This document shows, in pieces, positions 3,001 to 9,000 of a stretch of 64,000 nt of DNA. The position numbers were made by a program. Every line of letters starts with the position of its first letter. The stretch's first letter is position 1. The DNA is from Escherichia coli (lineage in GTDB: Bacteria; Pseudomonadota; Gammaproteobacteria; Enterobacterales; Enterobacteriaceae), in assembly GCF_003018235.1 (NCBI RefSeq), contig NZ_CP027437.1; one strand, 5' to 3'.

Positions 3001-6000
3001 CTCGGCAACATGTTCCGTGCCATTCCGGAAGAAGAGGCTCACGCCACCGTGAGCGAAGCCAGGAACCTAGGTGTGCGTTACTTTGATACCGCGCCGCTGT
3101 ACGGCTCTGGCCTTTCTGAAATCCGCATGGGTGAAGCGCTGTCTCAGTATCCACGCGATGAATACGTTCTGAGTAGCAAAGTCGGTCGCATCATGCTGGA
3201 CGAAATGGAAGATCCGGCAAAACGGGATTTCGGTGAAAAAGGTGGCCTGTTCGAACACGGCCTGAAAAACAAAATTCTGAATGACTACTCTGCTGACGCC
3301 ACGCTGCGCTCGATTGAAGACAGCCTGAAACGCCTGAAAACAGACCGTCTGGACATTGTCTGGATCCACGACCCGGCGCAGGACTTCTACGGTGACAGCT
3401 GGCTGGAGCAGTTCAACATTGCTCGTACCGGTGCGTTTCGTGCACTGACACGTTTGCGTGACGAAGGTGTGATTAAAGCCTGGGGACTAGGTGTGAACCG
3501 CGTCGAACCTTGCGAACTGACGCTGGCGCTGGACGAACCGAAGCCAGATGCTTTCCTGCTGGCGGGCGTTATTCCCTGCTGGATCACGAACGTGCGCTGC
3601 AACGCCTGATGCCAGAAGCACTGGAACAGAACGTAGATATCGTTGTGGGCGGTCCATACAGCTCTGGCGTACTGGCAGGCGGCGAGCACTTTGAATATCA
3701 GAAAGCCTCTGCGGCCATCCAGCAGAAAGTGGCGCAAATTAACGCCATTGCCACACGTTTCAATGTGAACGTTAAAGCAGCTGCGCTGCAGTTCGCGCTG
3801 GCAAACCCGGCCGTTGCAGCGGTTATTCCTGGCTCCAGCCGTCCTGGCCGTATGGCAGAAGATCTGGCTGCACTGAATGCGCCTGTTCCGGCTGAATTCT
3901 GGGCAGAAATGCGCCGTCAAAATCTGGTTGCGGAAAACGCTCCGCTGCCGACCCGTTAATCAACCTGGTGAGAAAACGATGAAACTGGATCTGACAGGTA
4001 AAGTCGCGGTGGTCAGCGGCTCAACCTCCGGCATTGGGCAGGGTATCGCCGCCGGACTGGCAAAAGCAGGCGCAACGGTGGTTGTCGTCGGCCGTAAACA
4101 GCGCGGCGTTGATGACGCCATGGCAGCGATTGCGACACAAACTCCCACGGCGTCACTGCGTGGCGTGGTGGCCGATCTCAGCACCGAAGACGGCGTGGCT
4201 GCGCTGATCGCTGCAGTCCCAACGGCTGATGTGCTGGTCAATAATCTGGGCATTTTCAACGATAAAGATTTCTTTAGCGTTCCGGATGATGAGTGGATGC
4301 ACTTCTATAACGTCAACGTCCTTTCCGGCGTTCGTCTGGCGCGTCACTATGCGCCAGGCATGACGGAACAGGGCTGGGGGCGGATTATCTTTGTCTCGTC
4401 CGAATCCGGCGTGGCAATCCCTGGCGACATGATCAACTACGGCGTCACCAAAGCCGCGAATCTGGCGGTCTCTCATGGTCTGGCGAAACGACTGGCGGGG
4501 ACCGGTGTGACCGTCAACGCCATTCTGCCAGGGCCAACCTTTACCGATGGCCTGAAAGAGATGCTGGCGGATGCCGCTGCACAATCGGGGCGCAGTGCGC
4601 GTGAACAGGCCGATGAGTTTGTTAAAACCTCGCGTCCGAGCTCCATCATCCAGCGTGCGGCGGATGTGGAAGAAGTGGCGAATCTGGCGGTTTATCTCGC
4701 GTCACCGCTTTCCTCGGCAACCACAGGGGCAGCCCTGCGCGTCGATGGCGGTGTCGTCGACACCCTGACTATGTAACCCTATAAATTAAGAGAAAATTAT
4801 CATGGCTAAAACAACTGTATCGATCGAAATTCCGGCTTCTGCCGACGCCGTATGGCAATTGATGGGCGGCTTTGATGCGCTGCCAGACTGGCTGCCGTTC
4901 ATCCCGAAAAGCGTGGTGACAGAAGGCGGTCGCGTTCGTTCGCTGACAACCTCTGACGGCGGCACTGTGGTTGAACGTCTGGAAGCGTTTGATAACCGTC
5001 AACGCAGTTATACCTATTCCATTATTCAGGCACCGTTCCCGGTGGTGGATTACCTCTCCACCATTACCGTTCATGAAACCGCCGACAGCCAGGTTTCCCG
5101 TGTGGAATGGTTCGGTGAATTCACCCCGGTGAATGTGACGAACGAAGAGGCCGAAGCGCTGTTTACCGGCATCTATCGGGATGGTCTCAAGGCGCTGAAG
5201 GACAACTTTGTTGCCTGATGCAATCGACAGGCGTCGGAACGTCCGGCGTCTGATTATTAACAAAATCAGAATAGTCTATTGTCATTTGTATCATTTATGT
5301 TATCAGGCAGCAGGCGTATTCTCTCCCCATCGCGTTAATAAACGCCAAACAATTAAGACACTCTGGAATATAAACATGAAAACGATCATCGCAATTTTTA
5401 CAGCTTCTCTTTTCTCTGTCGCGGCGTTTAACGCATCGGCGCAAAGCGTGACAGCAACCGGTACAACACTGGATTCTGCGGAAGCAGTTATTGCGCAGAA
5501 AGCGAAAGAGATGAACGCCTCTGAATATAAAATTACCGGCGCTCGCATGGGCAATACCGTCACCATGAGTGCCGAACTGTATAAATAATCGCGCGAGGGA
5601 CCCATTACGTAATTTGCTAAATATGCGCTGAATGCGTTGCCATTAATAAACCGTATTGTAATGCCACCGATGACGCGTTCCCGCGCGGGTGACGTTGCGA
5701 CTGACATAATGGCGGCCTATTACGCGCAGCGCGCCAGTGCTGGACTTATCATCTGCGAAGGTACGCAAATCAGCAGAAGCGCTGCGCATAATTTTCCATG
5801 GCACGCTGATTTACTCCGGTAAATACACCAAAGCGCGCGCCGAAGCGGACTGTCAGATTTGATTGTATTCTGGCTACGCAACTGATCGGTTGGAGTATGA
5901 AGTTGCTCACGAATAGCCTTAGCATCTGCAATTTCGTAGCGGGTCACCCGTGCAGGTTCTTTCTAATCTCAACAGCCTCTTCCAGAGAGGTTTTCAACTC

Positions 6001-9000
6001 ATCAAAAAAACTCATTTTATACCTCGCCTTTGAGCCGTTTCGTCACGGTTATCTCTGCTCGCCCATCATCTCCCGCACCAGCTCCACACAGCGCAGGAAA
6101 CGGCTGTCGTAATCGTCCTCTTCAACACGCACGAATTCGATATTGTTCTCTTCCAGCATCTCCACCAGCAAGTTCTGGAACTCTTTGCGATCCACCGAAC
6201 TACCGAGGCTGCGTAAACCATCCGCCACCCACGGGGTGTTGTTCTCCAGCAAGATAACCAGATCAAAACGGTATTCATCAATCAGCGCCTGCACGAACGG
6301 ATGCTCACGCCCTTCGTACTTTTTGCAGAACGCCTGGGTAGTGACAAAATCAGTGTCGATAAACGCCACTTTATTGGCGTATTTCACTGCAAAATCAATA
6401 TATTGCGCGTGTCCCAGCGCGATTTTATCGTAGTCAGAATACTGCAATGCGATCTCATCACCGCCGAGGTGTGAAAAGACATAATCGCGACCATATTCCC
6501 ACGCACTGGTGGTATTGAAGATATTGGCAAGTTTGTTTACCAGGGTTGATTTACCGCTCGACTCGCCGCCAAGGATCGCCACGGTACGCACAAAAAACGG
6601 CTTCACTTCAGTGGGGATATATTCCCAGTAGCGGAACGGGTTTTCGCGGATCTGCGCACCGCTGATACTCATAAAGGTGCGTTTCGGATCGACCAGCACC
6701 GTTTCGATCCCCAGATGTTCCATATACTGTGGCGCATCGGCTTCTTCCGAGGTGTAGATCAGGTCCGGCTGGATCCCCTTTTCAGCCATAAACTTTTTGA
6801 TGCCATTGCTCCACACATCCCAGCCGTGCGGATATGGCTCCATGCCCTCTTCGTTGAAAGCATGAATACGGATATTTTTCTGATATTTAAAGGTTTGCAA
6901 TAACCAGCGCAGACGATCCGGCACGGTGGGCTGCTGCGACATGGCGCTGTCTTCAAACAACGCACGGTCACGGGTATCGTCAAAGCCCATAATGATATGC
7001 AACTCGTCAACCTGGCTACAGGCGCGCTGGATAAGGTAGATATGTCCGGTATGCAACGGGTAGAACTTACCGAATACCACGCCAATGGTTTTCTTTTGGC
7101 GGGGAAACTCAAGCCCCAAAAAACGGTGCAACGCCTCCAGCTTTTGCGCGCTGGGGCTTTTAATTTTGGCATTCAGTAACTGGCTTAAATACCCTTTGGT
7201 CATACCGCTGGCATCAGCTACCTGCTGTAGCGTGCAGCCCTGTTGCTTGATGGCAGTTTTCAGGTAATCAAATGACGACATATCTCCCTCCGTATCTCTC
7301 ATTATAAGTCGTCGAACACGCTAAGCGCGTCGGAGAGTTTTTTAACGCCAAAAATCTGCATCCCTTCCGGCGCTTTTTTCGGCACGTTAGCCGCCGGAAC
7401 AATCGCCCGCCGAAAACCGTGTTTCGCCGCTTCAGAGATTCGTTCCTGGCCGCTGGGCACCGGGCGGATCTCCCCTGCCAGCCCGACTTCACCAAACACC
7501 ACCAGATCCTGCGGTAGCGGTCTGTCACGCAGGCTGGAAACCATCGCCAGCAGTAACGCTAAGTCGGCACTGGTTTCCGTCACCTTCACGCCGCCGACCA
7601 CGTTAACAAATACATCCTGATCGGCCATTTGCAACCCACCGTGACGGTGCAGCACCGCCAGCAGGATTGCCAGACGGTTTTGCTCCAGCCCCACTGCCAC
7701 GCGGCGTGGGTTAGCCATCATCGAGTGATCGACCAATGCCTGAATCTCCACCAGCAGCGGACGCGTTCCTTCCCACACTACCATCACTGAGCTACCGGAG
7801 GTCACTTCATCACCGCGGCTTAAAAAGATGGCGGAAGGGTTGCTAACTTCACGCAGCCCCTGTTCGGTCATCGCGAAGACGCCCAGCTCATTCACCGCGC
7901 CGAAGCGGTTTTTATGGCTGCGTAAGGTGCGAAAACGGGAGTCGGCATCGCCATCCAGAAGCACCGAACAGTCGATACAGTGTTCCAGCACTTTAGGGCC
8001 AGCCAGCGAGCCATCTTTGGTTACGTGCCCAACCATGACAATCGCCACGCCGCGCGTTTTGGCGAAGCGCGTCAGATAAGCCGCCGTTTCACGCACCTGC
8101 GCCACGCTGCCAGGCGATGACTGAACATCCGCCATATGCATCACCTGGATCGAGTCAATTACCATCAGCTTCGGTTGCTCTTCTTCGGCAATCAGGCAGA
8201 TCTGCTCGATGCTGGTTTCCGACAACATATTGAGATTGTCAGTCGGCAGGCCAAGGCGATGAGCGCGCATTGCCACCTGTTGCAGCGACTCTTCGCCGGT
8301 GACATACAGCGTTTTCATCTGCTGGGCCAGTTTGCACAGCGTTTGCAACAGCAGCGTGGATTTCCCCGCGCCTGGGTTACCGCCAATCAGAATGGCGCTT
8401 CCCGGCACCACCCCGCCGCCTAATACGCGGTCGAACTCTTTAAATCCGGTAGAAAAACGCGGCAGCTCCTCAAGGCTGATGTCGGAGAGTTTCTGGACTT
8501 TTGCCACTCCGGCGCTACCGGCATAGCCACTGAGACGCTCGTTACGCGCCACCGTTGGCGACGCAGCAAGACGCACCTCGGTGATGGTGTTCCAGGCATG
8601 ACAGGCACTGCACTGCCCCTGCCAGCGCGGATAATCGGCCCCGCATTCATTACAAACAAAGGCGCGTTTTGGAGCTTTTGCCACGGTGTACCTCGTTAAT
8701 GCTGTGCCGCCCGCAGGATGACGGGCAGGCAATTACTTCTGATTCAGGCTGCCAGAGAGGATGCAGAATACCCCCATCAGGTCAGCGTGACGGATGGTGA
8801 CTTCCGTTTTTTCATTCACTTTTGGCTTGGCATGGTAGGCAATCCCCAGCCCTGCCGCTTTGATCATCGGCAGGTCATTGGCTCCATCGCCAATCGCCAC
8901 GGTCTGCGCCAGCGGGATTTCATACTCCTGCGCGAGGCGAGTCAGAGTTTTCGCTTTGTACTGCGCGTCTACGATGTCGCCGATCACATTGCCGGTAAAT

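Follow-up and report, generated by a model that had tools for sequence, protein, structure and literature searches.

A decayed nadS gene behind nadR in Escherichia coli: very probably the remnant of a higBA2-type toxin-antitoxin operon

Directly behind nadR, the stretch of Escherichia coli DNA analysed here (64,000 nucleotides of contig NZ_CP027437.1, hereafter the window) carries a short minus-strand region in which two reading frames follow each other. In the RefSeq annotation that we used (record NZ_LR778147.1, E. coli isolate SC418), positions 5837..6015 on the minus strand are listed as a nadS pseudogene, "frameshifted; incomplete; missing C-terminus"; its pseudogene status is thus already known and flagged publicly. 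The features of the region are as follows.

6049..7281, minus strand: nadR, intact, 410 aa (RefSeq annotation; translation intact in all six strains compared)
6017..6045, minus strand: final 29 nt of a RelE/ParE toxin gene (HigB-2-like) that is otherwise deleted (LTKRLKGEV, 9 codons, plus stop; alignment with the intact EcPF5 locus)
5964..6015, minus strand: nadS codons 1-17 plus 1 nt (NadS HMM profile 1-20, E 1.4e-7; alignments)
5963..5964, minus strand: site of a 10-bp deletion (aacaaggttt, codons 18-21; alignments and junction probe)
5901..5963, minus strand: nadS codons 22 to ~42 (KEPARVTRYEIADAKAIREQL), out of frame with the start (blastn against EcPF5)
5841..5900, no strand assigned: island DNA, 60 nt, read through by the second ORF (HTPTDQLRSQNTIKSDSPLR; peptide without NadS match)
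5841..5844, plus strand: CGAA microhomology (comparison with GmM066-type genomes)
5661..5801, plus strand: N-terminal fragment of an OYE/alkene reductase, pseudogene (RefSeq; Pfam PF00724, E 2.4e-8, profile positions 12-63 only)

The first minus-strand ORF (5944..6015) translates as MSFFDELKTSLEEAVEIRKNLHG followed by a stop, and the second (5720..5947) starts at a GTG, runs for 75 codons and begins with MTRYEIADAKAIREQLHTPTDQLRSQ; the two share 4 nt (GTGA). Both lie exactly where an earlier note, made from the sequence alone, had placed them, and its suggestion that a frameshift had broken a small gene, HTH or antitoxin-like, was borne out: the gene is nadS, the frameshift is a 10-bp deletion of codons 18-21, and RefSeq agrees. 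Searched alone against the NCBIfam NadS model NF041265, the first ORF matched profile positions 1-20 (E 1.4e-7) and the second, collinearly with it, positions 28-62 (E 8e-4), while the two pieces joined gave an E value of 9.4e-15. In a blastn comparison of the window with strain EcPF5, positions 5901-6045 were 89% identical to an intact nadS (E 8e-57), the alignment being interrupted by one gap of 10 nt.

The note had also raised the opposite reading, in which no gene ancestry lies behind the two frames, which would be open by chance in GC-neutral DNA. Most of the 75-codon ORF (5720-5900) would suit it, having no protein homology and running partly antisense to another pseudogene. However, the collinear NF041265 matches, the strength of the joined match and the DNA identity to an intact nadS located at this position of the chromosome place the two frames far beyond chance, and RefSeq names the same gene; we regard this reading as already refuted, with a negligible residual probability.

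The extent of the surviving gene was next judged from the bit scores on NF041265 (curated cutoff 60 bits). As it stands, the joined translation reached 54.7 bits; with the 10 nt restored it reached 78.1 bits, over profile positions 1-49 of 94 only, of which the N-terminal 41 aa alone gave 74.3 bits, and the intact EcPF5 protein scored 182.6 bits over positions 1-94. The position is that of nadS, directly downstream of nadR, with the start codon 33 nt after the nadR stop and flanks as in K-12 and other strains. Judged by its sequence, the window copy descends from the NadS family, yet is not a functional member of it.

DNA homology to the intact nadS stops at ~5901 (~codon 42). The C-terminal 52 residues are absent, as is the Xre-type helix-turn-helix that the NadS family requires (PF01381, residues ~35-80), and in profile searches the peptide downstream of codon ~42 showed no NadS or HTH match. 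The 75-codon second ORF is a chimera in which only the first 16 codons (5900-5947) derive from nadS; these are followed by the 60 nt of island DNA and then by a stretch (5720-5840) that runs antisense to the OYE fragment. We considered whether its tail (HTPTDQLRSQNTIKSDSPLRR..., with a superficial echo of "...DTIKSWESKRR") could be a diverged NadS C-terminus and rejected this: alone it has no NadS match, and the score of the repaired N-terminus rises by no more than ~4 bits with it. This tail consists of island DNA, and the second "frame" stays open by chance as it runs on into unrelated DNA and the strand antisense to the OYE fragment. Together, the two tandem protein-like frames reported earlier span no more than the first ~42 codons of nadS; most of the second is not nadS, and no HTH-coding sequence is left.

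At the CGAA site (5841..5844), genomes of the GmM066 type are longer by 726 bp (39% GC), a stretch that includes a GNAT acetyltransferase gene; in GmM066 the equivalent of 5841-5900 lies just downstream of this convergent gene. The junction of the window type was found in 437 genomes. The 4-nt microhomology fits a deletion in the window and an insertion in GmM066 alike.

A 50-nt probe over the 10-bp deletion junction was found in at least 293 of 5,426 complete genomes (at least 99% identity). This bears on the alternative that the gene is functional apart from an apparent frameshift, which would stem from an error in sequencing or assembly or would be programmed. The GTGA overlap can support translational coupling, but the identical junction recurs in 293 complete genomes, each sequenced independently, the lesion, at 10 nt, is a deletion and no homopolymer slip, there is no slippery site, and the intact alleles are simple in-frame genes. 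Even a frame-repaired gene would still be without codons 43-94, including the HTH. This alternative, too, counts as already refuted, and we would give it hardly any credence.

Intact homologues, which the note had proposed to look for in other strains, do exist. In EcPF5 the order is nadR, toxin (110 aa), nadS (94 aa) and ettA, and an intact pair stands between nadR and ettA in 673 of the 5,426 complete E. coli genomes; ~4,300 have the remnant only, and ST131-like genomes have lost nadS completely, with no remnant. The toxin of the intact allele (RelE/ParE; WP_001298496.1 in EcPF5) resembles Vibrio cholerae HigB-2 (PDB 8a0x/5ja8, E 8e-16) and also matches PF06296, and the intact NadS, an HTH protein of the Xre type (PF01381, E 3e-10), resembles V. 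cholerae HigA-2 (PDB 5jaa, E 2e-6). NadS family members are also plasmid-borne and paired with a toxin, on 729 plasmids. The matches identify the intact pair as a toxin-antitoxin module of the HigB-2/HigA-2 type, which is common on plasmids too. The name NadS is therefore positional: the family is one of HigA-2-like, mostly plasmid-borne antitoxins with no demonstrated link to NAD metabolism.

The RelE-fold toxin gene (PF06296) that a HigBA2-type system carries directly upstream of its antitoxin gene is present in the intact allele and on the plasmids and is lacking in the window. Alignment with EcPF5 shows it deleted apart from its final 29 nt and places the junction between 6046 and 6045, 3 nt beyond the stop codon of nadR. 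The identical junction occurs in K-12/JM109, GmM066 and CUVET16, and probes over it found the K-12 allele in 964 genomes and the window allele in 562; different nadS allele classes thus have the toxin deletion in common. Insertion of a toxin gene into an ancestral locus with nadS only is argued against because the 29-nt toxin tail persists.

Taken together, positions 5901-6045 on the minus strand very probably represent what remains, without function, of a type II toxin-antitoxin operon of the higBA2 type that formerly stood on the chromosome between nadR and ettA. The nadS copy itself is a dead antitoxin gene and a case of ordinary gene decay, "dead" referring to antitoxin and repressor function and not necessarily to expression. 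The earlier note had placed this decay in the neighbouring island; the gene has indeed decayed, but it belongs to the older chromosomal flank on the nadR side, which the island abuts.

Going by characterised relatives, the first gene of the intact module would encode an mRNA endonuclease of the HigB-2 type that has a RelE fold and depends on the ribosome. Neutralisation of this toxin would fall to the N-terminal segment of NadS, a role assigned to it from its architecture, and the C-terminal Xre helix-turn-helix dimer would repress the operon. Experimental knowledge of these activities comes from the V. cholerae and A. baumannii relatives only. The mechanism has been described for V. cholerae HigBA2 (PMC5416850); for Acinetobacter baumannii HigBA2, an RNase toxin, autorepression and plasmid stabilisation have been reported (PMC5906591). 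Comparison of the sequences shows the losses in the window copy, in an order that we propose. First, an old deletion took away the promoter together with the toxin gene save its final 29 nt, so that nadS stood orphaned at 33 nt behind nadR. Left without anything to neutralise or to regulate, nadS then decayed independently in different lineages. In the window lineage, the 3' half with the whole HTH domain was lost at the border of an oxidoreductase islet of ~4 kb, and the frame was shifted when a 10-bp deletion then took out codons 18-21.

What is left is an ORF of 23 codons that keeps its ATG start (6013-6015) and a GAGG ribosome-binding site upstream. Its peptide, MSFFDELKTSLEEAVEI-RKNLHG (23 aa), is native NadS over the first 17 residues. 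An Rfam scan of the region returned no matches at E values up to 1, and a scan for promoters and terminators yielded no more than shuffled sequence did and showed no terminator in the interval from nadR to the remnant. The nadR transcript is the only plausible expression source, and at most the 23-aa peptide, with its 17 native residues, could be made from transcripts reading through from nadR. The K-12 remnant was detected as translated by PIRT-Seq (PMC12350097). Divergence of the remnant is about half that at the four-fold degenerate sites of nadR (0.07-0.10 versus 0.17-0.20), from tiny counts that are confounded by recombination. Against the intact allele, the window lineage shows 4 synonymous changes and 1 non-synonymous change, again tiny counts, and the K-12 lineage 5 non-synonymous and 2 synonymous. 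The first ~40 codons may thus be under residual constraint, as far as such tiny counts and the confounding recombination allow.

These observations bear on an alternative that we consider improbable, namely that the kept N-terminal peptide (23 aa here; in K-12, 38 native residues) still works as an orphan mini-antitoxin against HigB-2-like plasmid toxins, or a small protein linked to NadR. Besides the intact start and ribosome-binding site, the translation of the K-12 remnant and the divergence below that of the nadR four-fold sites, it would draw on the retention of the remnant in ~4,300 E. coli genomes, on the identity of 16 of the first 17 residues with the NadS of a Col plasmid and on a motif, F-x-[DE]-L-x-x-S-[LI]-[EK]-E-A, that is kept out to Vibrio and Acinetobacter. 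In V. cholerae HigA2, moreover, residues 3-22 are the minimal element sufficient for toxin inhibition in vitro (PMC5416850). The lesions, however, fall in exactly this peptide segment: at least 293 genomes have the 10-bp deletion, CUVET16 has lost the start codon and has a 1-nt deletion, and in ST131-like genomes the loss is complete. The K-12 changes (5 non-synonymous to 2 synonymous) are as neutral drift predicts, the 17 native residues do not include the equivalents of the beta-strand of the HigA2 binding segment, and the NadS N-terminus shows no detectable sequence similarity to that of HigA-2. If it were true, the remnant would be a chromosomal "anti-addiction" element, and the cell would lose such plasmids unpoisoned, Col-type and other plasmids being the ones that deliver HigB-2-like toxins, such as the Col-plasmid toxin WP_000017531.1. 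We favour the reading of the remnant as a decayed gene, for which an antitoxin or regulatory function is not expected.

The window nadS itself matters little, as a pseudogene that had been correctly recognised before. Its modest value is as an example: it shows how a toxin-antitoxin module on the chromosome dies, the toxin first and then the orphan antitoxin, by different lesions in different E. coli lineages. The spacer between nadR and ettA exists in at least five states: the intact pair, the REP-truncated remnant of K-12, an islet-truncated remnant, the islet-truncated remnant with the 10-bp deletion seen in the window, and complete loss; the spacer can therefore be used as a lineage marker. 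In CUVET16 the remnant has decayed further, with the ATG changed to ATA and one T also lost.

Finally, we compared the window copy with known systems. With the intact chromosomal nadS of E. coli (NF041265) it has in common the position between nadR and ettA, 89% DNA identity to the EcPF5 allele over codons 1-42 and the RefSeq name; it differs in the 10-bp deletion and in the loss of the C-terminal 52 residues and of the toxin gene. The V. cholerae HigB-2/HigA-2 module (PDB 5ja8, 5jaa, 8a0x; PMC5416850) resembles the intact E. coli module in its inverted order, with the toxin gene first, and in an antitoxin of two parts, with the Xre HTH at the C-terminus behind an N-terminal segment. Between the two N-terminal segments there is no detectable sequence similarity and the likeness is architectural only; the window keeps the N-terminal part alone, and broken. 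Antitoxins on Acinetobacter plasmids that belong to the RefSeq NadS family are ~37-39% identical to E. coli NadS and are encoded directly after a RelE/ParE toxin gene. HigBA2 of A. baumannii plasmid pAB120 (PMC5906591) is, unlike the window copy, plasmid-borne and intact, and its protein may not itself be among these NadS-matching antitoxins. The nadS remnant of K-12 (PGAP locus RS26030 in BW25113; PMC12350097) shares with the window the toxin-deletion junction, the start and a truncated N-terminal ORF directly behind nadR. The K-12 ORF retains 38 native codons in frame before it runs into REP-element DNA (55 aa in total, compared with 23 aa in the window), the truncation having occurred at REP sequences in K-12 and at the islet, with the extra 10-bp deletion, in the window.

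The window carries two open reading frames in tandem on its minus strand, as the earlier note had described: 5944..6015, which reads MSFFDELKTSLEEAVEIRKNLHG and a stop, and 5720..5947(-), which opens at a GTG, reads MTRYEIADAKAIREQLHTPTDQLRSQ... and overlaps the former by 4 nt (GTGA). The first piece alone matches the NCBIfam NadS model NF041265 (profile 1-20, E 1.4e-7), and the second matches it collinearly (profile 28-62, E 8e-4); joined, they reach 54.7 bits (E 9.4e-15). A DNA alignment of 5901-6045 with the intact nadS of strain EcPF5 shows 89% identity and a single 10-nt gap (E 8e-57). 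Chance ORFs are ruled out by the collinear model matches together with this DNA identity. From the model matches, the 10-bp deletion and the intact EcPF5 allele, the small HTH- or antitoxin-like gene suspected of being broken by a frameshift is nadS.

The region matches E. coli isolate SC418 (NZ_LR778147.1) at 100% identity, and since RefSeq places a nadS pseudogene at 5837..6015(-), our finding coincides with a publicly annotated feature. What remains here of a higBA2-type toxin-antitoxin module is thus a known pseudogene, and its decay is ordinary gene decay, already known.

Features of the nadS region (window coordinates)
5661..5801, plus strand: C-terminally incomplete pseudogene, "alkene reductase" in sister genomes (RefSeq, record NZ_LR778147.1)
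5837..6015, minus strand: nadS pseudogene (RefSeq, record NZ_LR778147.1)
about 5901, minus strand: end of nadS homology (DNA alignment)
5963-5901, minus strand: nadS codons 22 to about 42, out of frame (alignment)
5964/5963, minus strand: 10-bp deletion (aacaaggttt) after codon 17; codons 18-21 removed, frame shifted
6013-6015, minus strand: nadS ATG, intact, with an intact GAGG ribosome-binding site
6049..7281, minus strand: nadR (RefSeq, record NZ_LR778147.1)

In the alignment with the intact locus, only 29 nt remain of the toxin gene's 3' end (6017-6045, coding for ...LTKRLKGEV and the stop), joined to the nadR side 3 nt after the nadR stop; the promoter region has been lost together with about 101 codons of the toxin. 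The 10-bp deletion then produces a 23-aa ORF. The 75-codon second frame, which had been read as part of the broken gene, is a chimera: only its first 16 codons belong to nadS and the rest is island DNA and antisense of the OYE fragment, because an NF041265 search of the peptide gave no NadS signal in the next 60 nt (5841-5900) and from 5840 downward the ORF runs antisense to that fragment (Pfam PF00724, only profile 12-63 matched). No HTH-coding sequence is left in the window copy.

The full toxin and nadS pair is present in 673 of 5,426 complete E. coli genomes, which supplies the intact homologue in other strains; about 4,300 retain only a ~140-nt remnant, and about 464 show no match. The K-12/JM109 remnant (locus L003, 2498-2665) keeps 38 native NadS codons followed by REP-like palindromic DNA, as an open 55-codon ORF (55 aa). 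A ~4-kb islet between ettA and the remnant (window 1800-5900) occurs in about 461 genomes and encodes a LysR regulator, an aldo/keto reductase, an SDR, an SRPBCC protein, a DUF1471/YdgH-BhsA-McbA small protein and the truncated OYE alkene reductase. The nadR-ettA spacer takes at least five different forms in E. coli and could serve as a lineage marker. ST131-like genomes show no trace of nadS or toxin; in O25:H4 strain 18044 (locus L010, 2381-2500), one of the genomes without a match, nadR is followed directly by ettA across a spacer of about 120 bp.

The toxin-deletion junction is identical in K-12 (JM109), GmM066 and CUVET16; junction probes matched 964 genomes for the K-12 allele and 562 for the window allele, both lower bounds, as a SNP near the junction blocks seeding. 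The 3' truncation points differ, lying at about codon 38 at REP DNA in K-12 versus about codon 42 at islet DNA in the window. Because the junction is common and the truncations are not, the sequence comparison indicates that an old deletion of the toxin gene would have orphaned nadS once, with independent decay and different 3' truncations following in each lineage. In the window lineage the 10-bp deletion would have come after the 3' truncation, since GmM066 has the same truncation without it. This deletion junction was found in at least 293 genomes and is therefore an inherited clade-wide lesion, which rules out assembly error as the source of the frameshift. CUVET16 combines it with an ATG to ATA change and a 1-nt loss in a T-run. 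In GmM066-type genomes, which are free of the 10-bp deletion, an extra 726 bp at window 5840/5844 (locus L004, 3546-4271; 39% GC) lies between the OYE fragment and the remnant, includes a complete GNAT acetyltransferase gene and has CGAA microhomology on both sides (window 5841-5844); 437 genomes share the window-type junction. The segment may have been inserted in the GmM066 type or lost from the window lineage by microhomology-mediated deletion.

According to a PIRT-Seq study (PMC12350097), the K-12 nadS ORF is absent from EcoCyc; the study reports first experimental evidence of its translation, under laboratory conditions. That the remnant still acts as a mini-antitoxin or small protein, for which this translation speaks, is nevertheless very improbable. 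Of its first 17 residues in the window, 16 agree with those of a Col-plasmid NadS, and this stretch is the most conserved N-terminal part across E. coli, Vibrio and Acinetobacter. The remnant diverges by 0.07-0.10 per site, only about half as much as nadR four-fold sites, albeit about 20-fold more than constrained nadR positions. The 10-bp deletion, start-codon loss and, in some lineages, complete loss pile up in this same segment, however, which argues for relaxed selection. Neither this divergence nor the synonymous to non-synonymous ratios of 2:5 (K-12) and 4:1 (window lineage), all resting on small numbers, decide whether selection acts. As the remnant's own promoter is deleted, any expression must arise from nadR read-through. 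Scans found no terminator between nadR and the remnant and no excess of promoters or terminators in the region, and Rfam gave no match there at E up to 1.

Across the compared E. coli lineages, nadR (6049-7281) shows differences of 0.13-0.21 at four-fold degenerate sites and of <0.01 at first and second codon positions. This synonymous divergence seemed high for a within-species comparison, which suggests that the serB-radA-nadR-ettA region has old allele classes or has undergone recombination. The mechanical ORF list places the starts of two genes upstream of those in RefSeq, making nadR 417 aa long versus 410 aa annotated (window 7282-7302) and radA, with a TTG start, 476 aa versus 460 aa (window 8685-8732); these are artefacts of longest-ORF calling, with no real discrepancy.

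We counted 729 plasmid records with NadS-family genes, 268 of them from Acinetobacter, 101 from Klebsiella, 56 from Escherichia and the rest from others; they include ~5-kb Col-type plasmids at 80-84% identity. Phage matches were few. The toxin gene directly precedes nadS in each plasmid copy inspected. On Vibrio parahaemolyticus plasmid p114-1 (locus L009, ~1240-1500), a HigB-2-like toxin ORF (VSHAIEFVETSIFTKQIKELATDDELKELQAELIAQPEKGD...) directly upstream of the annotated nadS is absent from the PLSDB gene table, so plasmid nadS genes that look like 'orphans' there may have partners after all.

In EcPF5, nadR is followed by a 110-aa "type II toxin-antitoxin system RelE/ParE family toxin", then by nadS (94 aa) and convergent ettA. 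A toxin gene in first place is the "hig" arrangement. The toxin matches PF06296 (E 2e-8) and resembles Vibrio cholerae HigB-2 (structures 5ja8 and 8a0x, E 8e-16). NadS matches NF041265 over its full length (182.6 bits), and its residues 35-79 form an Xre HTH (PF01381, E 3e-10) like that of HigA-2 (5jaa, E 2e-6). A sequence match between the NadS and HigA-2 N-termini was looked for and not found, so we infer the toxin-binding role only from domain order and conservation. Given the HigA-2-like homology, toxin pairing and plasmid carriage, "NadS" is a positional name for a HigA-2-like antitoxin, and we found nothing that connects it with NAD metabolism. The V. cholerae HigBA2 toxin is a ribosome-dependent mRNase, neutralised by the intrinsically disordered HigA2 residues 1-36 (minimal inhibitory peptide, residues 3-22), while the C-terminal HTH domain serves dimerisation and DNA binding (PMC5416850); HigBA2 of an A. 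baumannii plasmid likewise comprises an RNase toxin and an autorepressing antitoxin, and stabilises the plasmid (PMC5906591).
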